Shown here: positions 113 to 55,530 of the stretch, in pieces
How positions within the stretch are numbered: the stretch's first letter is position 1
Layout: each line of letters opens with the position of its first letter
Source of the DNA: Octopus sinensis
Taxonomy: Eukaryota
Direction of reading: 5' to 3'
NCBI RefSeq assembly: GCF_006345805.1
Contig: NC_043007.1
Coordinates: 49,166,001-49,230,000 of the forward strand
Length of the DNA stretch: 64,000 bases
The notes under the pieces: generated by a model
Seen by the model: the letters and a program-made list of their open reading frames with translations, nothing else
Told to the model about the DNA's origin: nothing
Database searches by the model: none
Position numbers and translations under genes: made by a program

Positions 113-173
113 AACCACTACGATCGTTTCATGTCTTATTTCAGCACATCTTTGAGACATTCTTCAGGTGGTT
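113..173 (-). ncRNA. Minimal type I hammerhead ribozyme motif (Penelope/retrozyme type)
   Basis: Minus strand reads AACCAC-CTGAAGA-ATGTCT[loop]AGACAT-GAAAC-GATC-GTA-GTGGTT. Both conserved core boxes are present, stem I is 6 bp, stem II is 6 bp, stem III is the palindrome ACGATCGT, and the cleavage triplet is GUA. Confidence 0.8.
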
Positions 174-2289: not shown

Positions 2290-2535
2290 TGTTTTTGTTT
2301 TCCTTTTAACATGTAATACTGAAATAGTGGAGAAGATATGATATTGCTGTGGGCTCGCCCTAGGCAAGAAGTTAAACATTTTTTGCCCATGACACTACAT
2401 GGACTCTAGGTAAGGCATGTGTAAAATTTGAATGAAATTGGTTGTATAGTTCTCAAGTTTTAGGGAAACACACAGACAGACAGACAGACAGACAGGCACA
2501 CAGACACACGTTCTCAGTTTTATATATAGAGAAGA
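2290..2535 (-). mobile_element. Non-autonomous Helitron-like 5' terminal fragment
   Basis: Minus strand begins A|TCTTCTCTATATATAAAACTGAGAACGTGTGTCTG followed by (TCTG)n, the same architecture as the 5' end of the Helitron at 56696. It abuts the UGT remnant. Confidence 0.55.
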
Positions 2536-2595
2536 TATCGAAGTGTGAAAAAATGTTTATCGTTTTGTTGCAAGAAAAAAACGAAGAGTGACTAA
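2536..2595 (+). pseudogene. 3'-terminal remnant of a duplicate UGT gene (YRSVKKCLSFCCKKKTKSD*)
   Basis: Nearly identical to 13751-13810. The 3' flank continues to match 13811 onward, and the upstream part of the gene is absent here. Confidence 0.85.
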
Positions 2596-3894
2596 AATAA
2601 TTTCTTTGATAAGTTGAAAGAATGTAAATCATGGCAGGTTTTTGATTTATTCAAGTGAGGGTTAGAAACATTTAATTTTAAAAAAATAATTGAAATTTGG
2701 ACATTTTCTGTAGATATCATATTTATGTGGTGTAGGTTTTAACGATTTACCTCATATAGTGTGTTGATTTTTCTTTTTGTTTCAAACATTTTGTAGAAGC
2801 TCCGTATTAAACATAAACGTCTTCACTGAAAACAATACGTGTTAAAGTACAGTGCCATTATTTTTCTTATAATCAAAACAAGATGTTTATCAAAATTTCT
2901 ACAAAATTGCTTATTCATTTTATAATATATATATATATACATTTTAATCTCTTGCCAGCTGTCATATTTTATTGTACAATATTACAGTCTCCTCCCACTC
3001 TGTTTTCCTCGATGAAATTGTCAAGATTTTCTTCAAGTTGTTATGTCATTTTCGTAAAGAGAAGAGTCTGCTTATATCAATTAGTAATTAAATGGTTAAA
3101 TGCTTTGTTGCAGTTTAAATCTTGATAGGCTTGACACTTTTTGAACAAAACTCTTTGTAGTTTTCGTCGGTGTGCTGAAAGTTAATCCACAGACATGCAT
3201 CAATTTATTAGCGGGTCGGGAAAAGTGACCTATGGAATAAGTACCTTACTTTAAATATAGTAAGTCCTTTGATCCATTCGTTCGATTGAATGCTCGTCAA
3301 GGTAGTGCCACAGCATGGCTGCAGTCTCCTAACTGAAACAAGTAAAAGATAAAAAGATAGATTTAAAATGAAATTCCAATACATAACCACAATATTATCC
3401 TTTAAGTAATAATTACAGTTTACCTTTTTCTCTTTACTTTGTGAGGCACAAATTCAGCAAAAAAGGATGAAGAATTTGTTCGTCAGTATATTGGCGCTGT
3501 TATTTTTTTAACTATAAGTAATGGTAAAAATATTTTATACCTAGCATGACCTTTCAATAGTCACGTACATCCAATAATTTCTATAGCAAACGAATTATCA
3601 AAGTATGGACACAATAACTATTTTATACTAAATAACAAAAACTCACTAAAACTTTCCAAAAGGAACAAAACATAAATATCCTTCCAATGGACGAGATCAC
3701 AGAATTGAGTAAAACCTTTTCTGACGCACAACAGAAAATAGTATCAAAACGAAGAACCCTCTGATATGTAATAGAATTCTGAAGAATGAGAAATGGATCG
3801 AATCACTGCGAGCGGTTAATGCCAGTTTGGTTGTTGTTATTAATGGACTATTTGCGGCAAATTGTCTTACAATAACAGCATATCAATTGTCAGT
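2536..3894 (+). repeat. Segmental duplication copy A (UGT 3' end + 3' UTR + spacer + UGT pseudogene); copy B at ~13751-15208
   Basis: Colinear near-identity by eye. Copy B has an extra ~140 bp at ~14417-14557. Confidence 0.9.
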
Positions 3895-4378
3895 TCCATA
3901 TGTTCTCACAGAATCTGAGATATTTCCTGTCTTCATCGCATTCCAAGGATTCTGAGTGTTTTCTCCAACAGTTTCGTCGGATCCTCGAGCAAGATGGTAT
4001 ATTCGAAAAAGATAATAAGAGCTTTGGTTGCTATCATGGACTACTCCATTCCTCCTATCGTTGAACCTGCACACAGCGTTAAAACATATGCGAAACACAA
4101 ACCTATTTCATTCACAGATTTACTACATCAGGCACAATATTTTCTTATAGAAAAATATAGACTGCTAGTTTATCTGTTACTACAACTTCCAAACGTAAGG
4201 TACGTTGGTGGTCTGGATACAAAACGTTTGTTGCTACTGAAGTATGAATTAGTAAAATTCTTAAATGCGTCTATGAATGGAATAGTTGTAGTGTCATTTG
4301 GCAGTAATATACAAAGTAAATTGATACAAATAAAATATGATGTTGTGTGGAGACAGACAAAAACATCATTTTCTCATT

Positions 4379-6228: not shown

Positions 6229-6388
6229 ACTCTCTCTCTCTTTCTCACTCACTTTCCTCTCTCACTCTCCCTCCTTCTCTCTCACTCTCCCTCCTTCTCT
6301 CCCACTCTCTCTCTCTTTCTCTCTTACTTCTCTGAAACATTTGAAAACTTAAAATGAACTCAGTCACCACAAACTGTCTCTTTCACTC

Positions 6389-6434
<46 letters not shown>

Positions 6435-6500
6435 CCTTCCTCTCTGAAACATTTAAAAATAAAACGAACGCTGTCAGCATTCACTGTCTCTTTCACTCTA

Positions 6501-8114
6501 GGAGGTTGGAAACTATGATGGGCACTCCGCAAGATCTAGGGTGCGGAAAGTCAGCTTCGGCGTATGTGGACGACATCACCGTCATCGTATCCCGAGTCGA
6601 GCACCTACAGTGGGTGGGTGAGGCCTTAAGGGACTACGAAGGGGTGGCAAAAGCGAAAGTCAACCGGGATAAATCGGTCGGCTTGCAACTCGGCACCTGG
6701 AGGGGCAAGTCGATGTTTTCCGACTGCGTCGTAGGACTTTGGACGGAAGGGCCGGTGAAAATGCTTGGAATCTGGTTAGGTCCAGATCTCCAGATAGAGA
6801 AGAGTGAGATGGTGAGAAAGGTGGCTCTCCTAACTCAGACCTGGTCTGAGCAGAATCTGTCCTTGAAAGGGAGTGCGGAGTTTGCAGAAGTGTTTATCGC
6901 CTCTGTAATCACTTACCGCCTGACCATCGTGCTTTGCCTCGATTCGTGGCTGAACAAGCTGGAACGCATGCTCTTTAGCTTTTTGTGGAGGAGCAGCAGA
7001 CCTCTTGTAAGGCGCTCTATTTGCTGCCAAAAGCCGCTGAAGGGTGGGTTAGGGATGCCGTGGCTAAAAATGCGCAGACATGCGCTCAGGCTTAGGCACC
7101 TCTGGCTTTACCTGGACGGTGAGCAGGTGTGGTCTCCGTTCGTCAAGCTGTTATTTCCAGTTCACATCATTTACCAAACTGAACCCATGGATCAAGTGCC
7201 ATCAGGCACTCGTTTTTCTATCCCAGTCGGGCAACGCCGGTGGCGTGGGTACTACCTCGTTCTTCTATAGAGGGTTAGTAGAGTTTAAGTGTGACGACGT
7301 TCAGGGAGAAACCCTGGGCTTCGATGAAGATCAACTGGCTAGCCTGTTCCAAAGAACATTCGGTTCGGGGCCTATGGATAAATACCAAAAGTCCCTGGCC
7401 TGGTAATGTTACAGAGGAGCTTTACCGGTTCGAGATAAGTTCTTTAGACATGGGTGTGCACCTTCACCGGTTTGTGCAAGATGTGAGAGGGACAGTGAAA
7501 CTGTCCTGCACGCAATTGTGCAATGCCCCAAGGTGACTGAACTCTGGGCTTATGTCGAATACCTGCTGTCGCATTCGAGAAGAGTACAACTGTCGAGCAA
7601 ATCTGTAATTAAAATCGTTCCGCCGACCTCCCTGAATAGGGAGGAGCGAGCCTATTTTCTCTCGGTAGTTGCTGTGGCGAAAGAAGTAGTATGGAAGACG
7701 AGAGTGAAAGGAATTGCAACAGGCATGTTTATCTCCAGTCTCGAGCTAATCGACTTTTTCGTTTTCCACATGAAACGGAAAATAAGGCTGGAGAAGAAAT
7801 GCCTGTCGCAAAGTGTGTTTCGTAAAAGATGGAAGTATATAGCAAGTAAGTATGTTGCGAGTGAAAGAACCTGTTAAATCGAGAATGTAAAAAAGGGGAA
7901 AGCAAAGTCTTCAGTGTGAGTATGTGGTTTGTGGGGTCAACCGCGTCCTCCACTTCATTTTTTGTTAATCACTCATTCTCATTTAATTGTATATATTTTA
8001 ATTGTTTATTTATTCATACGTTTCGTCTCATTCGATACCATGACCCCAACGTTTGTTTAGTCTGTCCTAGTATTGTCCCCACTTTTTCTCAACCTTATGG
8101 TGAATAAAGAAATA
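6501..8114 (+). mobile_element. 5'-truncated L1/Tx1-clade LINE (RT C-terminal half + zinc knuckle), frameshifted
   Basis: Motifs SAYVDDITV, KVNRDKS, LSLKG..E, KGGLGMP and C..C...ETVLHAIVQCP, with 3' end AATAAAGAAATA. Sits in a (TC)-rich tract. Confidence 0.85.
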
Positions 8115-10085: not shown

Positions 10086-10746
10086 TTTCGTTACAGGTGC
10101 CATTGTAAGATATATTTTCATTCATCCCTAGAAACTTATAACATTATTCGTCAGATATAGGGGAAACAGCCAATCATTGATGGAGATGTTGCTAGTGTGA
10201 TTTATAGTTTTCCCTCTTTTCACAACCATGTAACAATATAATTTATGTAAACTGAAGAGAAGTGTAGCAATATATCAGACCAAATGGTGATAAAACGAAA
10301 GACAAAATGGCCAAAATTGGTAAAATGAAATCGAAGAACATAGTGAATTAAAGTAAAAAAGAAAAAAAGAAAAAAAAACAGAAAAATAACTTAAAGGGGA
10401 CAGAAATGTTATTTTGACATAAGAAAATAGATTTTAAAAATTGTATGTATGTACGTATGTATGCATGTGTGGACATATATATATATATATATATATAAAC
10501 ATATATGCACACACGCACTTAAACAAACACACACACGCACTTAAACAAACACACACACACACACACAAACACTCACACGCACTCACACACACATGTATAC
10601 ACACATATACATATGCATATATGTAATATATATATACAGTCAATATCACGTCCATTCGGCTGGAAGTATTTCTTTCTCAATGTATAAACTTAACATGATT
10701 TATGTACGAGTGATCATGTATGTATGTATGTATATATATATATATA

Positions 10747-11561
10747 GGTATGCAATTAATTTTGTTTTTTATATAAATTTTCATCTGTCCTGCCCGCCAA
10801 ATTTGGATCTGTTGTTCGCTGAATTTTTCCTCTAGAGAACTTTCTTTGTAGTTTGATCGTTGATGATCTATTTCTAGCATACGGCCGACTACCTAGCAGT
10901 CTTGCCCTGCCAATATACACATATATTAGAATTTTCTCTGATTTCTCAGATTTTTTGTATGCTAGACTACTGGTTTTAAATTGATATTAAAATTAATATT
11001 AATTTATCTCCCTCATTATTTAAATATTGAAATAAATACGTTCTCTAGTAGCAAGCACTAACCGTAATGAATTATTTACTGCAGTTCTTCGCTTCAGGAA
11101 TTTTTTAGCGCACCGGAACTAAGACATTTGAAATTTTATCCCTAGTGTAATCGGTAAAACTAAGCACGTGTCTGTCTTGGCACAGAAAGCTGGGGTTATT
11201 TTTTCGGATTGCATTTACACTGAACGATTGTACTGATGAGACCACGGACATTTGAATTATGTAAGTAATTATTTTGTTAAAGGCCGAAACCGAGGTATGC
11301 AATTAATTCTGTTTTTTATATAAATTTTCATCTGTCCTGCCCGCCAAATTTGGTTCTGTTGTTCGCTGAATTTTTCCTCTAGAGAACTTTCTTTGTAGTT
11401 TGATCGTTGATGATCTATTTCTAGCATACGGCCGACTACCTAGCAGTCTTGCCCTGCCAATATACACATATATTAGATTTTCTCTGATTTCTCAGATTTT
11501 TTGTATGCTAGACTACTGGTTTTAAATTGATATTAAAATTAATATTAATTTATCTCCCTCA

Positions 11562-11568
<7 letters not shown>
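10747..11568 (+). mobile_element. Non-coding retrozyme-like element: ~547-bp unit in 1.5 tandem copies with an internal hammerhead
   Basis: 10747-11022 is repeated almost exactly at 11294-11568. A hammerhead lies at the unit junction, (TA)n tracts flank both sides, and there is no ORF. Confidence 0.75.
11228..11302 (+). ncRNA. Type I hammerhead ribozyme motif
   Basis: TTGTA-CTGATGA-GACC[~38 nt]GGCC-GAAAC-CGAG-GTA-TGCAA. Stem I is TTGTA/TGCAA with one G-U pair, stem II has one mismatch, and the triplet is GUA. Confidence 0.7.
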
Positions 11569-12274: not shown

Positions 12275-12292
12275 GTCAACACCTCTTGAAAA

Positions 12293-13810
12293 ATGAGACA
12301 GAAAAGTCTGTTATTCAGTTTAATGGTGCTATGCATGATTGTATGTTTAAAGAGAGTCAACAGTAAAAATATTTTATACATAGCATGGCCTGGTTACAGT
12401 CACATAAATCCAATGATTTCTATTGCGAACGAATTGTCAAAGTATGGTCATAATAACTATTTTATACTAAACAAAAAACTCACTAAAACTTTCCAAAACG
12501 AACAGAACATAAATATACTTCCAATGGATGAGATCCCAGAAATTGAAGAAATTCGCACTGGTTCAGAGAAACAAGAAACAAGAAGATTATACATGATGAA
12601 AAACGCCTTAACTTTATTCCCTGTAGTGTGCGAGAGAATGTTAACGGATGAAAAATGGATAGAATCATTGCGAGCCGTCAATGCCAGTTTAGCTGTGATC
12701 AATGGAATATTCATAACAAATTGTCTTACAACAATTGCCTATGAATTATCAATTCCGTTTGTTCTCACGGCATCTGAGATATTTCCTAGTCTTCATCGTA
12801 TTCCATGGAACCCCAGTGTTTTTCCAAGCAGCTTCTTCTCATCCTCCGATAAGATGACATATTCGGAAAAGTTAATAAGTACTTTGGCTGCTATTGTAGA
12901 CTACACTATTCCTCCTATTGGAGCGCCTATACACAGTGTCAAAACATACGCTAAAGACAAACCTGATATTTCATTCACAGATTTACTACATCAGGCACAG
13001 TTTTTTCTTATTGAAAAAGATGTACTTCTAGATTATCCACTACCACAACTTCCAAATGTAAGATACGTTGGTGGTCTGGCTACAAAACGCTCATTGCCTT
13101 TGAAGGGAGAATTAGTGAAATTCATAAATGCGTCTAAGAATGGAATAGTCGTGGTGTCATTTGGCAGTAATATCAATGATTTCCCTGCTGTTCAATTAAA
13201 GAAACTACAAAGTGCATTGAAACAAATAAAATATGATGTTGTGTGGAGACAGAAGAAAACATCATTTTCTCATAAGAATATTTATATCAGTGATTGGGTA
13301 CCACAAAATGATCTGCTTGGCCATCCTAAAACAAAATTATTTGTTACTCATTGTGGAAATAGCGGTCAGTTTGAAGCTTTGTTCCATGGTGTACCAATGC
13401 TGGGAATACCTATATTTGCAGACCAATTTTATAACTCTCGCAGAATGACCGAGAAAGGATACGGATTGTCTCTAGATATAGAGAACTTCACTCCGGAGGA
13501 ATTAATAGAGAAAATAAATGAACTAATTGAAAATAAAACATATTCTGAGAAAATTAAAAGAGCTAGTGAAATATTTCATTCTCGGCCCGAATATCCAGCG
13601 AAGAAATCAGCCCGCCATATTGATCACATCTTGAAATATGGTGGAGAATATCTAAAATCTCCATGTCAAGAGAGTCGATTGTATGAATTTTTAATGATCG
13701 ATGTATTAGTTCCTATATTTGCTGCAACAATATTTTTGATATATTTAATATATCGAAGTGTGAAAAAATGTTTATCGTTTTGTTGCAAGAAAAAAACGAA
13801 GATTGACTAA
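12293..13810 (+). CDS. UGT: UDP-glycosyltransferase (GT1, UGT family), 505 aa, single coding exon
   Basis: Signal peptide, GYSH catalytic His, UGT signature WVPQNDLLGHPKTKLFVTHCGNSGQFEALFHGVPMLGIPIFADQ, C-terminal TM helix and dilysine tail KKKTKID. Confidence 0.96.
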   Translation: MRQKSLLFSLMVLCMIVCLKRVNSKNILYIAWPGYSHINPMISIANELSKYGHNNYFILNKKLTKTFQNEQNINILPMDEIPEIEEIRTGSEKQETRRLYMMKNALTLFPVVCERMLTDEKWIESLRAVNASLAVINGIFITNCLTTIAYELSIPFVLTASEIFPSLHRIPWNPSVFPSSFFSSSDKMTYSEKLISTLAAIVDYTIPPIGAPIHSVKTYAKDKPDISFTDLLHQAQFFLIEKDVLLDYPLPQLPNVRYVGGLATKRSLPLKGELVKFINASKNGIVVVSFGSNINDFPAVQLKKLQSALKQIKYDVVWRQKKTSFSHKNIYISDWVPQNDLLGHPKTKLFVTHCGNSGQFEALFHGVPMLGIPIFADQFYNSRRMTEKGYGLSLDIENFTPEELIEKINELIENKTYSEKIKRASEIFHSRPEYPAKKSARHIDHILKYGGEYLKSPCQESRLYEFLMIDVLVPIFAATIFLIYLIYRSVKKCLSFCCKKKTKID

Positions 13811-14789
13811 AATCATTTCTTTGATAAGTTGAAAGAATGTAAATCATGGCAGATTTTTGATTTATTCAAATGAGGGTTAGAAACATTTAATTTTAAAAAA
13901 TTAATTGAAATTTGGAAATTTTCTGTAGATGTCATATTATGTGGTGTAGTTTTTAAAGATTTACCTCATATAGTATGTTGATTTTTCTTTTTGTTTCAAA
14001 CATTTTGTAGAAGCTCCGTATTAAACAATTAAACGTGAATTCTGAAGTACAGTGCCATTATTTTTCTTATAATCAAAACAAATTGTTTAATCTGTTCGGT
14101 TCATAAATTTTTTTAATAAATCGCTTATTCATTTTGTAATAAATATATACATTTTAAGCACTTGCCAGCTGTCATATTTTATTGTACAATATTACCGTCT
14201 CTTCCCACTCTGTTTTCCTCGATGAAAATGTCAAGATTTTCTTCAACTTATGTCATTTTCGTATAGAGAAGAGTCTGCTTATATCAATTAGTAATTAAAT
14301 GGTTAAATGCTTTGTTGCAGTTTAAATTTTGATAGGTTTGAAACTTTTTGAACAAAACTCTTTGTAGTTTTCGTTGGTGTGTTGAAAGTTAATCCACAGA
14401 CATGCATCACTTTACTAGTGTGTCATAGCATAGCGTGGGCAGACTGTCATGAGAGTTAAGTTGCTTATGTTTTGTCACAGGACAGCTTTCATGTGAAAAA
14501 GGGACTTCAACGGTGACCACTATCGTTTTTATTTTTCATTTGTTTGACTTAATATTGTGGGTCGGTAAAAGTGACCTATTGAATAAGTACCTTACTTTAA
14601 AAATAGTATGTCCTGCGGTCCATAAGTTCGATTGAATGCTCGTCAAGGTAGTGCCACAGCATGGCTGCAGTCTCCTAACTGAAACAAGTAAAAGATAAAA
14701 AGATAGATTTAAAATGAAATTCTAATACATAACCACAATATTATTATTTAAGTAATAATTACAGTTTACCTTAATCTCTTTATTATTAT

Positions 14790-15477
14790 TATCTTTTTTT
14801 ACCTGTAAGTAATGGTAAAAATATCTTATACTTGCATGACCCTTCAATAGTCACGTACATCCAATGATTTCTATAACAAACGATTTATCAAAGTATGGAC
14901 AAAATAACTATTTTATACTAAATATCAAAAACTCACAAAATCTTTCCGAAAGGAACAAAACATAAATATACTTCCAATAGACGAGATCACAGAATTTAGT
15001 AAAACCTTTACTGACGCACGGCAGAAAATAGTATCAAAATGAAGATATGTGATAAGAAGAGTTTTGACTTTGATTCCTCTGATATGTAATAGAATTCTGA
15101 AGAATGAGAAATGTATCGAATCACTGCGAGCGGTTAATGCCAGTTTAGCTGTTATTAATGGACTATTGGCAGCAAATTGTCTTACAATAATAGCATATCA
15201 GTTGTCAGATATAGAGAACTTTACCCCAGAGAAACTAATAGAGAAAATAAATGAACTGACTGAAACTAAAAGATTCTTAGAAAATTAAAAGATCTGGTGT
15301 AATATTTCAGTCTCGGCCCGAATATAAAGCGAAGAATTCAGCCCACCATATTGATCACATCTTGAAATATGGTGGAGAACATCTAAAATCTCCATGAATT
15401 TCCTATATTCGGAGTAACATTACTTTGGATATATTTGACCTATGTAATTGGGACAAAATGTTTTATAATTTTTTGCA
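14790..15477 (+). pseudogene. UDP-glycosyltransferase pseudogene 2 (large internal deletion)
   Basis: Has the same early TGA as pseudogene 1. It jumps from IAYQLS directly to DIENFTPE, losing ~730 nt, then has a decayed C-terminus (HIDHILKYGGE). Confidence 0.9.
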
Positions 15478-29784: not shown

Positions 29785-31481
29785 CAGTAGTTTTATTTTT
29801 ATAGCGTGCCTTCACTTCACTACCGAGCGCAGCTCTGTGTGCCTTGGGTATATGCTGTAATTTTTTGTGATGCTCTGATGGTTATTGTATGGAAAGTGTT
29901 CTGCGTAGGATGTGTGCAGTGCCTAGTAGTGCAATTTTCTGTATGTTATATGTGTTTGTAAGTCCTGGTGTTTTTGTTATGTATTTGTCTGAATATTTTT
30001 TTATCATGCCTAATGCACCTACTATGATAGGAATTGTTTCTGTTTTCAGATTCCACATTCTAGTTACCTCTATTTCCAGGTCTTTGTATTTTGAGAGTTT
30101 CTCCATTTCTTTTAGAGACACGTTGTCATCTGCCGGTATTGATACATCAATTAGAAAGCATTTTTTTTCTTCATGGTCTCTGACAACTATATCTGGTCTG
30201 TTGGCCTTAATTTCTCTGTCTGTGTGTATCGGCATATCCCAGAGTATGGTTGCTTTCTCGTTTTCTGTGACCTTTTCTGGTGTGTGCCTATACCATCTTT
30301 TTTCTGTTGTTATTCCATAATGTTGGCATAGCTTCCAATGTATGTAGGTTCCAACTCTGTCATGTCTGTGAATATATTCCTTCTTAGCCAGGACTGGGCA
30401 GCTAGAGATAATATGATTTATTGTTTCTTGTCCATCTCCACATATTCTGCAGTTACTTGTAATATTTCTTTTCATTACATGTTTTTGGTAATTTCTGGTG
30501 GGGAGGCTTTGGTCTTGTGCTGCAATTAAAAATCCCTCTGTTTCTGCTTTGAGTCCTGAGCTTCTCAACCATTGCTGGGATTTTTCTTTGTCTATTTCTT
30601 TTGCGTTTAGTTTAGTGCAGTATTTACCATGAAGGGGCTTTTCTTGCTATCGTTTTATCATGGTTCGTTGCTGTTCTATTTTTAGTTTGGATTTCATTTG
30701 TTTTATAGCTTTTGTTGTTTTTCTCTTCTTCTTCTTCTTCTTCATGTTTATTAGGTGGTATGATTTCTTGTTTGTATTTGTCAGCTTCCTTAAATACTGA
30801 GAACAGTTTTTGTTTTGCTCGTGTTTTGCCGCTATCTGGATCAGTTTTCCTTCCTTCTGAAGTAGATATTTTTGCAGTCCTATGGTGGTTATTTTATAGT
30901 AGTTTTCCAGCTGTATAAGGCCTCTACCACCTTCTATACGTTGTATATATAGTCTTTCTATGTCAGATTTTGGGTGATGCATCCTAGATCCTGTCATTAT
31001 TTTCTTGTTTTCCTATCTATTTTGGTCAGTTCATTTCGTGTCCAGTTAAGGATATTGTAGCTGTAACTTATAACTGGGACAGCTAAAGTGTTGATACCTA
31101 TTATCTTGTTTTTAGCATTGAGCTCTGTGTTTAGTATTGATCTAACTCGTCTATAATATTCTTTTTTTATTTTCTCTTTCATTTGTGTGTGTTGTGTCTT
31201 ATCTAGTTCATGGATTCCTAAGTATTTGTAAGTTTGACTTTGGTCTAATTCTTTTATTTCATTGGTTTTATCTAGTGTGATGTTGTTACTCTTAACTAGT
31301 TTTCCTCTTTTCATGGTTACTTTGGCGCATTTTTCTAATCCAAATTTTATATCTATTTCTTTGGTAAATCCATGAACTGTCTTTAATAGTGTTTCCAGCT
31401 GTTTGTCATTTGCAGCGTATAGTTTTAGGTCATCCATATATAAAAGGTGGCTGATCGTTTTACCGTAACATTTATATCCGC
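29785..31481 (-). mobile_element. 5'-truncated R4/Dong LINE (RT C-terminus, CCHC, restriction-like endonuclease)
   Basis: YMDDLKLYA, CRIC..ETINHIISSC, RHD, NRPDIVV..IDV and EKLSKY. (TAA)n tracts on both sides. Confidence 0.92.
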
Positions 31482-32253: not shown

Positions 32254-35200
32254 TATGTTTGACTTTTGCTTTATATTTGTACAAGTTGGCTCCAAGTCTC
32301 ACCCAGAGACCTCAAGAGACAACAGGGTTGGAAGTTCATGTTGTTGTTATGCCTAGTGTGCCATATATTTGGGGGGTGGGTGGAGGTGTTGTACTAATGA
32401 ATGTCTAAAAAAAAAAGTTTTTTTTTTTTTTTAATTTTAAACCGAAAATTATGTTTGTTTTAAACCTTGAGATTACATAGAAAGTATTTTGCGTAGGATA
32501 TGAGCAGTTCCCATGAGCACTATCTTTTGAATTTCTGCCATTTTTGGGTTTCCTGGTATCTGAGTTAGGTAGCTATCTGCCCCTTTTGCTATCATTCCCA
32601 GGGCACCTATGACAACAGGTATTGTTTTAGTCTTCAGCTTCCACATTTTGCTGATTTCTATTTCAAGATCTTTATATTTGCTCAGTTTTTGGTAGGTCCT
32701 GACAGATACGTTTATATCGATTGGGACAGTCATATCAATGAGGAGGCATGTTCTTTGTTTGAAGTCTTTCAATATGATGTCTGGCCTATTTGCATCTATC
32801 TTTCTGTCAGTTTGAATGGCGAAGTTCCAGAGGAGTGAGATGTGGTCATTTTCAAGCACTGGGGATGGTTTGTGTTCCCACCAGTTTTTTTCATGGGGCA
32901 AATCCAGGTTTTTACAGATTACCCAGTGAATATATTGTGCAGCTCTATCGTGCCTGTTGAGATACTCTGTAGGCGCTAGAAGACTGCACTTGGAGATCAC
33001 ATGGTCAATGGTTTCATTTTGTTGCTTGCATACACGACACGTTGGACTGCTTCTGATCTTTAATATGTTGGCCTGGTAGTTTCTTGTTGGTAGGCATTGA
33101 TCTTGAGCTGCTATGATAAACCCCTCTGTTTCAGATTTTAAGCCAGAGGCCATTAGCCATTGATGGGTCAGGGCTTTGTCGATATCTGCATTATTCGCTC
33201 TCTTTGGGTATTTGCCATAGAGAGGTTTTTCTTGCCATTTATTATTCAGAATATCTAAGGCCGCAGTTTTGGCACGGGTTTTCATGCGCCTAGCTTTTTC
33301 TGTGCTTGTTTCTTGTATGTCTATCTCTAATTCCGAAATTGGTTGTATTCGGAATTCACTTAGATATTCCTTTGCCTGTTTTGTGACTGAGTATGATGCT
33401 TTCTTGTTTTCATGTTTCGAGACAAGTTTTAACATCCAGTCCTCAGGGTTTTTCAGGTAGGTGTCTAGGCCAATTGTAGCAATCTTCATTGTTATTGCCA
33501 GTTGTAAAAGTCCACCGCCTCCCTCTTTTCTTGGCAGATAAAGTCGTTCTGTATCTGCCTTAGGGTGGTGCATTCTATGCATTGTCAACAGTTTTCGTAT
33601 ATTTCTGTCAAGATTACATATTTCAGTAATTGACCAGTTAACGATACTGAAACTGTAAGTCACCACTGGTATGGCTAATGCATTGATCGCTTCGATCCTG
33701 TTTCTCGCATTCAGCTCTGTCTTGAGTATTGCTCTTACTCTGCGATAGCATTCTCTCCTGATCCTTTCCTTCATCTCTGAATGCCTTATTCCTTCTCCTT
33801 CAATTACCCCTAGATACTTGTAGTTCTCTGCTGGGTCTAATTCTCTTATGACATTCTGCTGGTCAAGGTTAACGTTAGATGTTTCTGTCATTTTTCCTTT
33901 GATAAAGGTAGCTTTTGCGCATTTATCGAGGCCAAATTGCATTCTGATGTCATCACTGAATTGTTTGACAATCGCTAGTAAGCCCTTGAGTTGTTGGTCA
34001 TTTTTTGCAAAGAGCTTTAAATCATCCATGTAAATGAGATGATTTATATTTTTATCAAACATTTTATATCCGTACTGCGCGTCATTGAGCAGTTTTGAGA
34101 GAGGTATTAAGGCTAAACAGAAAAGGAGCGGTGATAGTGAGTCACCCTGGAAAATGCCACATGAAATTTTTACATCACCAGCATTTAGAGATTCATTGTC
34201 ACTGTTCAAAGTTAGTGTGGTTCTCCATGATCTCATACTTACAGACAAAAAGTTTCGCAGAGCAGGTGCTATCTTATACCTTTCTAGGCATTTATTAATC
34301 CAGCTATGTGGTAGGCTATCAAAAGCCTTTTTATAGTCTATCCAGGCTATTGATAAGTTTTTGTGTCGTTTGTGACAATCTTCTAAGATCATCTTATTGA
34401 TGAGTAGTTGATCTTTACAACCGTAGGATCCACGTTTACATCCTTTCTGTTCATTAGGGAATATGCTGCTGTCTGTCAAAAAACTATAGGTATATTCCGT
34501 CAGGACAGATGTTAGTGTTTTATACATAGTTGTTAAGCAGGTTATGGGTCTATAGTTTTTGGGTTCATTTGTTTCTTCACTTTTTGGAAGCAGGAATGTT
34601 AACCCATTAACTAGCCAAAGAGGCATCCTACTAGGGTGTTGCAAAACATCATTGTAAAGTTCTGCTAGCAGTTCATGGCTCTCTGGGAAGGCATTCAACC
34701 AAAAGTTAGGGATTTTATCCTTTCCTGGAGACTTCCATTTGCTTGACCTCCTGAGAGCAGATCTTATATCTTCTACGTTGACACCCTCCCACTTTTGCTC
34801 TTCTAAGGAGTCCAGTTCTTTAGATATTCTATCAATCCAGGGGGCCTTTTCGCTGTGTGTTTTTTCTTCTGCCCAAATTTTATTCCAAAATCCCTGCACT
34901 TCTTCTTTTGATGGTACAGACTTTACAGTAACTGTTGTTTTTCCTATCTTCCTGTAAAAATGTTGGGGTTATTTTTGAACATGTTGTTGTCCCTGTAGAA
35001 TCTAATACGCTTTTCATACCTCGCTACGCGGGCAGCTTTAGCAGATACCTTTTGCTTGATGGTTTCTATGGTGGCATCAATATCAAGTATAGTTTTCATA
35101 TTATATTTTTTCATTAGTTTTTGGGTTTTTGCAGGTTTGGTAGTCTTATGAACCTTAAGGTTTTTCAAATATTCAATGTCAGATCTAAATAGTTTAATTT

Positions 35201-36632
35201 GTTGTTGCAAACGCTCTTGCCAAGAAGGCTTTTTGTGGAAATGTTGCCGTTTTCTAATCTTTTCACCATATAGGATCGTTGAGATTTTCGCGGATGCATA
35301 GTATAGGTGGTTGAGATCTGTGATATCAACATCATTAGCTGAAATTATATCCTTAAGTGCAAGCCGGATTTTACCAATTATTTTCATGTTTTGGTTAGAT
35401 TTGCGCATTTTAGGGAGTGTATCACGTTCATCCATACTGGTTTCTTTAATCCATTCAATCATGATTTGACTTTTTAGCTCATGTAGTTCTGTTGGGTCAA
35501 TATTTGTGTGACTTTCTTTATCTATTTGATGTTCATCTGTCTTAGTGTTTATATTTGGTTCAGGGAGTATTTCACTTTGCCTATCACTTATACTAACTCT
35601 TTCAATCCTTACTTCGTTTGTATTAGCTCTGAGCTGGTCTATAATTATTTCCTCTGTATTATCTTCTTTAGCTGCAGCTTCGTTCATTCTATCCGTTACT
35701 GCTTGTTTAATTTGATCAATCTCTACTTCAGTCAGTAATTTTTTTTTTATAATGTTTCTTCTGACGTTGGCAAGTTTGTTACTGTCTATGTAGGGTCTTA
35801 CTTCAGGGTGTTTCTGTCTCCAGTTTATGTAGGTTTGTATAGTGTTCGATTTATCTGTGGGGAAATATATGGCATGCTAGAAGGCTGCAAGGACTTCTTT
35901 ATTATCTTCCCTAGTCCATTTTTCCTTCTTTTTCTTTTGAGTGTTTGGTGACGAGCATGGATGGCCATCTGTTGGAATATTCCAGTTGCGGGGTACGTCC
36001 CGCTCCTGTGTGTCGGGAAGATTTGATCCAGTAGCTGATTTTTCAATCAGACTTTGGTTCAATTTTCGGGTACGTGGTCTTTTGTAGTCCGCTCGTCGAC
36101 CATCGCGGATTGTAGGTTGTTTTGTTGACATTGAAGCATGACGAGCTTCGACTCTTACATTAAGAGACGGATCTGTCAGTTTAGGATTTTCTGCACGTAA
36201 ACATTGCTCGTAGTGCAGTTTCCTAAGGCTAGCAGATCTGTATTCGTCTGTATTTTTTTTGTTGATAGTTTTATCTCCGGGCATAGTTTTCCCTTCTTTT
36301 TATTTATTTATTCATTTATTTCTTTAAACTTATGAAAGGTTCACTCTCGCTGTATTAGTTCGAAAAAATGAGAATAAAATACGAGAAAAAAAATAATAAT
36401 AAACAAATATAAAATAAGAATTATCATCATCACTGTCATCACTGTCATCACTGTCATCATCATCATCATCATCATCAATGACATTGTTTTATGTGTAGTC
36501 ACAGCGGTAGCTTATTATTATTATTATTCTCACTATCACCATCACCACGGTGGAGTGGTCATGTTCTATAAATAGATTCATCAGATGGTGGACAAAGGAC
36601 ATTTTGGGTCAGGAAAAGGTCAAACCTGTTTA
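32252..36632 (-). mobile_element. Near-intact full-length R4/Dong non-LTR retrotransposon
   Basis: Single ORF ~36284-32473 broken only by a TAG at 35877-35879 and a frameshift near 34955. Motifs NYRPITCL, EQKG, GIFQGDSLSPLLF, YMDDLKLF, CCHC and RPDII..IDM..KLSKY. The 3' end joins (TAA)n, and the 5' end motif is shared with the copy ending at ~45099. Confidence 0.95.
32473..34899 (-). CDS. Reverse transcriptase + CCHC + restriction-like endonuclease of the R4/Dong element (808-aa open segment)
   Basis: ORF track translation contains all RT motifs and the PD..D..K endonuclease core. Confidence 0.85.
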   Translation of the reverse strand: MQGFWNKIWAEEKTHSEKAPWIDRISKELDSLEEQKWEGVNVEDIRSALRRSSKWKSPGKDKIPNFWLNAFPESHELLAELYNDVLQHPSRMPLWLVNGLTFLLPKSEETNEPKNYRPITCLTTMYKTLTSVLTEYTYSFLTDSSIFPNEQKGCKRGSYGCKDQLLINKMILEDCHKRHKNLSIAWIDYKKAFDSLPHSWINKCLERYKIAPALRNFLSVSMRSWRTTLTLNSDNESLNAGDVKISCGIFQGDSLSPLLFCLALIPLSKLLNDAQYGYKMFDKNINHLIYMDDLKLFAKNDQQLKGLLAIVKQFSDDIRMQFGLDKCAKATFIKGKMTETSNVNLDQQNVIRELDPAENYKYLGVIEGEGIRHSEMKERIRRECYRRVRAILKTELNARNRIEAINALAIPVVTYSFSIVNWSITEICNLDRNIRKLLTMHRMHHPKADTERLYLPRKEGGGGLLQLAITMKIATIGLDTYLKNPEDWMLKLVSKHENKKASYSVTKQAKEYLSEFRIQPISELEIDIQETSTEKARRMKTRAKTAALDILNNKWQEKPLYGKYPKRANNADIDKALTHQWLMASGLKSETEGFIIAAQDQCLPTRNYQANILKIRSSPTCRVCKQQNETIDHVISKCSLLAPTEYLNRHDRAAQYIHWVICKNLDLPHEKNWWEHKPSPVLENDHISLLWNFAIQTDRKIDANRPDIILKDFKQRTCLLIDMTVPIDINVSVRTYQKLSKYKDLEIEISKMWKLKTKTIPVVIGALGMIAKGADSYLTQIPGNPKMAEIQKIVLMGTAHILRKILSM

Positions 36633-52576: not shown

Positions 52577-52659
<83 letters not shown>

Positions 52660-52699
52660 TATATATGTATATGCTTATATATATATAACATATACATAC

Positions 52700-52763
<64 letters not shown>

Positions 52764-52800
52764 GTATGTAGATATATGTATGTGTATATATATGTATATA

Positions 52801-53182
52801 TACAAAACGAGAAAATGGAGAAATATATCTAAATCAATCATCAACTATCAGATAATACCGAATCAATACTTTATTAAAACACTACACAATAGCAATGATA
52901 TTATACATTAATATAGTACAATAATTACAATCAATATGGTGAAATATAACTAAATAAATATAACAAGACATAGAAATACATTTGCATTGTAGCTGACAGC
53001 TGTTTCGGCCATGAAGACAGGTATGTCTCATTTAACCTATTAGCCATATAATGCAGGTATAAATGAGACATTAACAAGAATATCTTACGGCCTCTTCAGA
53101 GATTTTAATGCAAGTATGAGTGCAAATCCTAAATAATTTACATATAAATATAAACGTGCGCACATACATACATAGTCATATG

Positions 53183-53221
<39 letters not shown>

Positions 53222-55493
53222 ATAGACATACCCACGTACACAACCAAAACATAAATAAATAAATAACATAAGAGGTACTATCACAACTATACACTAAGTG
53301 TTTACAAACAGATCCACTCACATATGTCCATAAATCCGTAAATGCAATCATACATATAATTATACCTAGATGGAGAGTGTAATTATACCTAGATGGAGAG
53401 TGTAATTCATATGACACCGTATTTTTCGTAAACAAAATATTTCAGAACTAAAAATGTCCGCATCATTACCGTTATGTTTCATTCAAACATTTACTAAATT
53501 ATAAAATATAGAATACCCGTTTATGTTTGTCTATCAAAAGACATAAAAATACATATATACTAAGTTAACAGAGGTTTATAATAATGGTGTCAGCTCTTCT
53601 GGTGACGTCGATGTTCGCCTGGGGCTAAATGCATCAGTAACACCCCCACCACCCCGCCCTGACCCTAGCCACATTCAGATGGCTGATCCCTCTTATGTTA
53701 TAGAGCAGTTACTGTTTATATCTCGCCCAGAGATTTATTATTGTTATAATAATTAAATTATAAGAAATTAATTGTAAAAAGTCAAAATACGCTAATATTC
53801 TAAGATATATAATCAAAATAACTTCTTATAACTTATACAGATAACATCACTACTTAAGAAGTCCAGTATTATTACAATACTATTATATTCCTATTTAAAC
53901 CCTCACCAACGAACTAATAGAATTATACTCATATCTACATATCCATATGTATACTCATGTGTAACAACAAACATATATATACACTATATATTTTCACATA
54001 TGATGTGTATGTAAACATTCGTAGTACTTATATATATATATATATATTTTTAAGTATCAGTGGACACATAAATACATATATACTAATTAACAGGATTTAG
54101 CATTAAATAATATCAGTGGACGTATAAATACATATATAGTAATTAACAGGACTTACCAATAAATAGTATATAAGTAAATAATTATAAATTAAATTAATTA
54201 TAAGTTAATAATTGTTATTACTTAAAATTAAAATGTGATAAAATAAAATAAGATGAAATAATTAAAAATAAAATGAAAATATAAGTAAAAACATGTATAC
54301 ATATATATATATATTTTAATAAAGAATGGATATGTATGTATATATCTACATATAAATAAATGAATAAATAAATAGATAAATACCATAAAATACAAATTAG
54401 GATAAATACAAAGGTAAACTTAATATATAATACTGCTAATATGTATATACCCACATATACATAAATGAATAGATAAATGAATAGATAAATAGATAAATAA
54501 CCTAAAATAAAATAAAAAAATATACATTAAAATGAGTACATAGATAAACTTAGTATACAGGCTGCTAATATGTAAATATTTACATATAAATAAATGAATA
54601 AATAAATAGATAAATAACATAAGGTACAAATCAAGATGAGTACAAATATAAACTAAATATATAAGACTGCTAATATGTATAAAGCCACATATAAGTAAAT
54701 GAATAGATTTATTAATAAATAACATAAGATACAAATTAAGATGAGTACAAAGATAAACTTAATATATAATATATAAAACTGCCAAATAAATACCTGCAAA
54801 AACTCATATACTCATCCAAAACAAACGATGTACATTCAATATAGACTCGCATTTATTACATATTAGTATTACAGTATCTAAAACCAGCTTCCCAAACTAT
54901 GATACGCATACACACTCATCAATTTTGGAAATCCCCATGAATATCATAGTGCTATGTATATACCAAAATATATATATTTATATCCTAGTGTATTTCCCTT
55001 ATAAGCCAGGACAAAAAACAAAAAACAATCAATACAGAACATATATATTTATATATATGTGTAGCTACAAGATTATAAATTTATAAGTTGTATGTTTCAA
55101 ATTGTAAAGACCACTACAAGTCAGCTACAATGTAAATGTATTTCTATGTCTTGTTATATTTATTTAGTTATATTTCACCATATTGATTGTAATTATTGTA
55201 CTATATTAATGTATAATATCATTGCTATTGTGTAGTGTTTTAATAAAGTATTGATTCGGTATTATCTGATAGTTGATGATTGATTTAGATATATTTCTCC
55301 ATTTTCTCATTTTGTATTATTAATTTACGGTAAAAATAATTTTACCTTTGCCCACCTAATTCAGTAAATGAATTAATTGCATCGCAATTTTTAACATTTA
55401 TGTATTAGCTTTGTTGGGTACTTCTCTAGCAGTATATTGGATGTATGTTATCCCATGGAGGGTTGAATTTACAACCCCTATCTCATTTTATAA

Positions 55494-55495
<2 letters not shown>
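52801..55495 (-). mobile_element. Non-coding AT-rich Penelope-derived element with hammerhead and inverted terminal pLTR copy
   Basis: 52801-52997 is the near-perfect reverse complement of 55120-55316. It holds a hammerhead at 52982-53113 and degenerate ~115-bp tandem repeats at ~54330-54790, and is flanked by (TA)n. Confidence 0.7.
52982..53113 (-). ncRNA. Type I hammerhead ribozyme motif with extended stem II
   Basis: Minus strand reads TTGCATT..CT-CTGAAGA-GGCC[~78 nt incl. ATGTCTCATTTA/TAAATGAGACAT hairpin]GGCC-GAAAC-AGCT-GTC-AG..AATGCAA. Stem III is the palindrome ACAGCTGT and the triplet is GUC. Confidence 0.7.

Positions 55496-55530
<35 letters not shown>

Follow-up and report, generated by a model that had tools for sequence, protein, structure and literature searches.

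A two-armed insertion of a Hydra-like Penelope-like element in Octopus sinensis and the clustering of family 5′ ends around its predicted hammerhead cut

Known Penelope-like insertions and the architecture of the locus

An adjoining inverted, 5′-truncated copy and a tail at one end are typical of Penelope-like elements (PLEs), according to passages of PMC8557442 (Craig et al. 2021). In the canonical insertions portrayed in those passages and in parts of PMC11167929 (Frangieh et al. 2024), the inverted 5′-truncated copy lies at the 5′ end, the tail is one-ended (30-40 bp in PMC8557442), and there are two 3′ ends. PMC11167929 also describes a purified PLE protein that nicks the two strands of the target and extends each of them, with two internal start sites delimiting the tail, and reports that ribozyme cleavage is dispensable in vitro. 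PLE hammerheads are described in sections of PMC4209133 (Cervera and De la Pena 2014) as type I motifs with a short palindromic helix III, able to form dimers, of low activity, and with a suggested role in processing; their role is called unclear in the passages of PMC8557442. Within the C-terminal EN+ PLEs, those passages define the Hydra clade by RWK and DKT motifs, a CxCX5C linker, loss of CCHH, CxxC/CxH motifs, and insertion into (TA)n. Its members usually measure <3 kb and carry a canonical hammerhead near the 3′ end, and one of them, Penelope-13_HM, has a 5′-truncated inverted copy attached. Non-LTR retrozymes, as presented in parts of PMC7229834 and bioRxiv 10.64898/2026.07.22.740005, consist of short tandem units.

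We analyzed a 64,000-nucleotide stretch of the Octopus sinensis genome (contig NC_043007.1, positions 49,166,001 to 49,230,000; hereafter the window). Features are given in window positions. Coordinates within the element take as +1 the first base after the GUC of the hammerhead of the family found at this locus (family A), and the cut is a predicted one. The main copy, a 5′-truncated PLE comprising 3′ UTR and pLTR, occupies 52800..55116 on the minus strand, as delimited by colinearity with ORF-bearing copies. It is 91-96% colinear with five other copies (L061, L063, L064, L066, and L068) up to 55114-55116, corresponds to the final 2.3 kb of the element, starts ∼55 nt downstream of the ORF stop, and terminates at +195, the short 3′ end. 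Facing it on the plus strand is an inverted 5′-truncated copy, the right arm (55120..55497; −3..+375), which ends at the long 3′ end. The inverted repeat of ∼197 bp with copies 2.1 kb apart, reported in a preliminary description of this DNA, is thereby confirmed: the left arm (52800..52997, minus strand; −3..+195) and 55120-55317 match over 198 nt, are 99% complementary, and lie 2122 nt apart (arm-arm BLAST E 1e-97, two mismatches). Also as described there, the right arm opens with the GTC triplet at 55120 and is longer than the left. It begins GTC|AGCTACAATG, with the G of GUC three bases ahead of the scissile bond; its end at 55497 (+375) lies ∼178 nt beyond that of the left arm. Comparison with other copies identifies this extension (55318..55497, plus strand) as the tail of ∼178 nt between the two 3′ ends; other copies, e.g., L002, L004, L020, and L021, carry it in one stretch with the ribozyme, and in full-length copies it continues into the 5′ region and ORF.

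At the head-to-head junction (55110..55123), the simplest parse against eight uninterrupted copies gives the main copy ending in ACCACTA, three extra bases (CAA), and then GTC, with an ambiguity of a few bases since a nearby TCAG is common to the main copy's continuation. A +1 start for the window's arm, which would require two changes at this junction, is possible but less simple. The insertion lies between a (TA)n-rich left flank (52581..52799) and a (TA)n right flank (55498..55528), and no target-site duplication is distinguishable in these flanks. Relative to L003 and L013, the window copy carries a deletion of ∼380 nt near 53152-53206. The 3′ UTR contains a degenerate tandem repeat of ∼105 nt (54246-54827) common to other copies, and a ∼23-nt tandem duplication (53357-53402) was not seen in L003 or L013. 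Nested in the main copy is a later insertion (53585..53744, plus strand) flanked by a 10-nt direct repeat, a 5′-truncated copy of a young hammerhead repeat from an unrelated family, C.

Elsewhere in the window, a 506-amino-acid open frame (12290-13810, plus strand) matches UDP-glucuronosyl/glucosyl transferases (Pfam E 5e-75), and parts of it recur at ∼2500-4300 and ∼13700-15050, which suggests duplicated gene copies. Remnants of non-LTR retrotransposon RT and zf-RVT domains lie at 32473-35876 and 29882-30646 (both minus strand) and at 6353-7270 (plus strand).

Family A as a coding element with a predicted hammerhead

A genome search with the ribozyme and left arm returned 2964 candidates, of which 40 were scored and proved 93-98% identical. 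Copies with more upstream sequence extend beyond the window's junction into an ORF for reverse transcriptase (RT) and GIY-YIG endonuclease. One of them (L137) shows the layout: pLTR with ribozyme, +375, 5′ region, ORF, and a ∼2.3-kb 3′ UTR. Two others (L135 and L156) have open stretches of 743 and 749 amino acids containing MGSPDS, YRDD, YLDV, and VYIG. A search with the protein recovered 149 homologues among 6781 candidates (best E 4.5e-90), mostly unnamed proteins of ∼700 amino acids; three ORF pieces matched no Pfam family, and none of the 31 loci scanned had a fully intact ORF. The structure is that of EN+ PLEs: a single ORF joins RT to a C-terminal GIY-YIG endonuclease, a pLTR lies upstream of the ORF in L137, truncated and inverted copies occur, and the 3′ ends at +195 and +375 leave a one-ended tail. 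The PLE relationship drawn earlier holds.

Family A shares with the Hydra clade the RWK and DKT motifs (IHRIRWKIF, HSDKTSNIY), the CxCX5C linker (CNCRNRNQC in L066; CNF in L135, L137, and L156), and CxxC and CxH around E and N (KKCSLCINE, NEKNFFCIH). CCHH is absent, a single C lying between the two core motifs, and the 3′ flanks show (TA)n insertion together with a canonical hammerhead motif near the 3′ end. The attached inverted copy of Penelope-13_HM has its counterpart in the window. In contrast to the lengths usual for that clade in PMC8557442, the family A unit measures ∼5.8 kb (∼5.7 kb of element in L137), owing to the ∼2.3-kb 3′ UTR and two N-rich insertions, and its hammerhead differs from the Hydra ribozymes listed in those passages in having a 74-nt loop II. 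Since <3 kb is a tendency in PMC8557442, we file family A as Hydra-like by motifs, a new member of this group of families on that assignment, and the window locus as a 5′-truncated copy of an autonomous PLE with Hydra-clade motifs. In L135 and L156 the N-rich insertions (∼100 and ∼65 amino acids) are absent from most aligned homologues; two homologues (P0001 and P0013) have shorter insertions at the first site.

The minus-strand hammerhead with its GUC at 52995-52997, noted earlier, is reproduced by a motif scan and a constrained fold as a predicted type I motif at 52976..53118. It comprises CUGAAGA (53099-53093), a long helix II with a 6-bp base (GGCC), the 74-nt loop II, and GAAA-CAGCU-GUC, with the GTC triplet at 52997-52995 and the predicted cut between 52995 and 52994. 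Helix I has a predicted distal stem at +7..+19. As in the PLE hammerheads of PMC4209133, helix III is short and palindromic, with a predicted self-duplex of 8 bp (−12.5 kcal/mol). The constrained hammerhead fold lies 4 kcal/mol above the minimum-energy fold. The scan covered both strands (minimum 3 bp for helix II and 2 bp for each of helices I and III) and returned two candidates, 53099-52995 (minus) and 167-119. An Rfam scan of the window gave no hammerhead family at E ≤ 1, just microsatellite-driven miRNA matches, so the hammerhead call rests on the motif scan and constrained fold. The other candidate (119-167, minus strand) is a type I motif whose helix I spans 6 bp and belongs to an unrelated family.

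3′ ends, arm pairing, and 5′ ends around the ribozyme

Family A arms finish at ∼+195 or ∼+375, each right after a CTCATTTT motif and each into (TA)n. Pairings were counted for arms whose truncation lies downstream of −150 and which abut a partner on the opposite strand; a pair may enter this count twice. Of the 77 arm-partner observations, 41 were short arms facing a long partner and 31 were long arms facing a short one; a single long arm had a long partner, no short arm had a short one, and 4 could not be resolved. Thus 72 of the 73 resolved head-to-head observations, like the window insertion, pair a long with a short arm. Compared with the canonical tail of 30-40 bp, the family A tail of ∼178 nt is long, and neither the near-strict long/short pairing nor the 5′-end zone described below was found in the passages of PMC8557442 and PMC11167929 on canonical PLEs. 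In at least 18 of 36 head-to-head pairs, both arms are truncated at most 20 nt apart, often at local hairpins; fold-back or coupled termination could produce such near-equal truncation.

We mapped 5′ ends in two family A samples picked by exact anchors downstream of the cut, which makes them blind to 5′-end position. Long arms represent 70 of 71 genome-wide anchor matches; short arms (n = 69) were drawn from among the matches listed (131 of 205 in the genome), minus long arms and 27 loci outside the listed contigs. One 5′ end (L182) was reset by hand from +29 to +6 to agree with the other anchor, and breakpoint positions carry an error of several bases where TA repeats adjoin and in a TTTCTA-repeat subfamily. 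Among long arms, 24 of the 40 ends between −140 and +165 fall within 25 nt of the cut (scan P = 0.0005), at 11.4 per 1000 bases at risk versus 1.2 downstream and 1.8 upstream; just the window's own arm ends within 4 nt, and none at +1..+3. The short-arm sample places 12 of 32 ends in the same interval around the cut (scan P = 0.002), with 3 within 4 nt and 1 at +1. Pooling the 131 arms with ends at or before +150 places 36 ends within 25 nt on both sides of the cut, 4-6 times background: 23 at +1..+25 and 13, the window's arm included, at −25..−1. The corresponding rates are 9.6 and 6.7 per 1000 bases at risk, versus 1.5 downstream and 1.6 upstream. The excess is significant on both sides (P = 1e-9 and 6e-5, values that are somewhat optimistic because the pool may contain both arms of an insertion), and it is seen alike in inverted-joined and flank-joined arms.

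5′ ends in family A thus cluster around the ribozyme and almost never lie at the predicted cut: only 1 of 139 arms starts at +1..+3, and 4 of 139 lie within 4 nt, with 5.8 expected from the surrounding zone. From two unrelated elements with boundaries within 3-4 nt of the cut, the preliminary description had suggested that self-cleavage defines the end of the RNA template in a family of non-autonomous, PLE-dependent elements. As a rule this fails in all three families sampled, since ends within 4 nt number just 4/139 in family A, 1/102 in family B, and 0/41 in family C, and a boundary set exactly at the cut was rejected. In addition, the window's inverted arm carries the GUC, which is absent from the cleaved 3′ product, and ends at −25..−1 need an uncut or re-ligated template across the bond. 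What survives of the suggested link between family boundaries and the triplet is the wider enrichment of 5′ ends in the ribozyme region. A literature search, with most subscription papers and the early Penelope structure papers outside its reach, found no title or abstract on PLE 5′ ends mapped against the ribozyme cut.

About 40% of family A arms read through an intact cut junction. Among read-through copies of one subfamily (X; L020/L036, L137, and others), 18 of 20 carry a U4C core change (CCGAAGA), the other 2 being unreadable; other family A copies have CUGAAGA almost throughout. Of arms reaching +25, 12 of 28 in subfamily X stop in the zone versus 31 of 106 others (Fisher P = 0.18; 6 arms unassigned). 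U4C markedly reduces hammerhead activity in vitro, yet can be enough in vivo, according to passages of PMC3088659, and because it lowers activity without necessarily abolishing it, this test is suggestive only.

Two other hammerhead families, whose short tandem units resemble non-LTR retrozymes, served for comparison. The second element named in the preliminary description (10747-11568) belongs to family B. A tandem hammerhead repeat of 546 nt is present there in 1.5 units (10746..11568, plus strand; hammerhead at 11233-11297, read by eye and folded), and the element's start at 10746/10747 does lie near the cut, 4-5 nt before it. The family has two 3′ ends, 95 nt apart. The family B sample comprised 102 distinct anchors (from 104 of 114 in the genome), some chosen as full units, which inflates read-through; no arm started at +1..+3, and the rate within 25 nt was 7.1, versus 5.7 downstream and 2.3 upstream for all arms. 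In long arms alone, the best 50-nt window lay over the cut (scan P = 0.035). A family B array of ∼3.5 units (L349, 2750-4680) has internal ribozymes with G17 (GUG), predicted not to cut, and its 5′ end lies ∼9 nt before a cut site.

Family C, the source of the 160-nt insertion nested at 53585-53744, which starts at ∼+65 from its own cut, has a ∼360-nt unit with a U3-A8 core and a palindromic helix III. Its copies show both tandem and inverted arms, with three or more 3′ ends (L425-L447). With 1944 candidates, many of them 100% identical, it is very young and probably recently active. Its 41 sampled arms (20 listed clusters in contig order, three further loci, and the window) include 3 within 25 nt of the cut and none at +1..+33; the rates per 1000 were 2.1 within 25 nt, 2.6 downstream, and 6.0 upstream, with no excess near the cut.

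Candidate explanations and significance

We favor, at a probability of roughly 0.6, a reading in which both nicked strands of a (TA)n target would prime reverse transcription at two different start sites, the two cDNAs would be joined head to head into one insertion of the autonomous PLE, and the shorter cDNA would end at the GUC on account of a tendency of RT to stop while crossing the folded, uncut hammerhead. We infer the two-strand priming from in vitro work on another PLE (parts of PMC11167929), in which PLE insertion was also unaffected by ribozyme mutants. Standard twin priming on a single RNA with non-overlapping arms was set aside, since +1..+195 is present in both arms. Stalling at the RNA fold is a model for the cause of the zone. 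It is consistent with a peak of ends at +10..+18, seen in a larger, partly biased set, which coincides with the predicted distal helix I (+7..+19). Three observations argue against it: the ends just downstream of the cut (23) outnumber those upstream (13), as cleavage followed by trimming also predicts; family C lacks the zone despite a predicted stable, extended helix I; and in family B the zone rate is close to the downstream rate. Stalling at the hammerhead is not general, since the zone is absent in family C and the excess in family B appears in long arms only; a general stall at helix I was accordingly rejected.

We rank RT stopping on the folded ribozyme first among the causes of the zone, followed by cleavage with trimming and then by a preference at joining. 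A looser form of the preliminary idea, possible but clearly less probable than the favored reading, would have the hammerhead cut some templates, RT run off at +1, and the cDNA end be trimmed by 5-25 nt at joining, while upstream ends would stem from RNA left uncut or from RT jumping across the nick. The excess is indeed strongest directly past the cut, at 9.6 per 1000; in several near-symmetric pairs both ends fall in +1..+29; and two arms start precisely at +1, L093 from the unbiased sets and L047 from elsewhere. Nevertheless, the immediate vicinity of the cut shows no excess, the 13 upstream ends require a second cause, the window's arm includes the GUC, and many arms cross the intact junction. 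Furthermore, the zone is no weaker with U4C, family C has no ends at +1..+33, and anole RNA-seq showed no reads ending at the cut in PMC11167929. It is quite unlikely that the zone is set at joining by local sequence, through brief stretches matching the TA target, together with small inverted repeats between cDNA ends, that happen to gather in this region. Many junctions adjoin TA runs or local hairpins, half or more of the 36 pairs truncate nearly together, and the zone is specific to one family, all as such a preference would have it. But the zone is not richer in AT than downstream sequence, and −20..+5, the least AT-rich part of the pLTR, is still enriched; no cDNA hairpin is predicted on the plus side; cDNA fold-back energy hardly differs from zero over 0..+40, and its strongest values fall at −60..−40 or −100, where ends are few; and flank-joined and inverted-joined arms give the same zone. 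Neither AT content nor cDNA hairpins single out the zone, and both were rejected as its main cause.

A scaffold role for the hammerhead, in which two RNAs would pair via the palindromic helix III, a dimeric RT would prime both strands at two sites, and the cDNAs would meet at the ribozyme, we consider unlikely; if true, it would account for the head-to-head insertions, the long/short pairing, the two-sided zone, and the success of the U4C subfamily. Very improbable, and rejected here, is a non-autonomous element, as the preliminary description had it, or a DNA transposon with terminal inverted repeats. The window copy has no element-derived ORF, in agreement with the earlier call of a noncoding interior, and its terminal inverted arms are near perfect. 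However, the interior is the 3′ UTR of a coding element, continuous in other copies with the RT and GIY-YIG ORF, and the label "non-autonomous" is therefore wrong; a non-autonomous retrozyme, a short noncoding tandem unit, is what only families B and C represent. Most copies are one-armed or have other arm lengths, the window's arms are unequal, inner ends vary, and there is neither a transposase nor a discernible target-site duplication, in keeping with the earlier preference for a PLE over a transposon with terminal inverted repeats.

The window insertion is an ordinary two-armed PLE copy, and the locus alone says little. The zone is not common to the two other hammerhead families sampled, which limits its reach. 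For PLEs with hammerheads, family A adds three modest, testable facts: its inverted arms start from opposite RT sites, which is the expectation under two-strand priming; its 5′ ends cluster around, not at, the predicted cut; and a subfamily with U4C has spread and kept the cluster.
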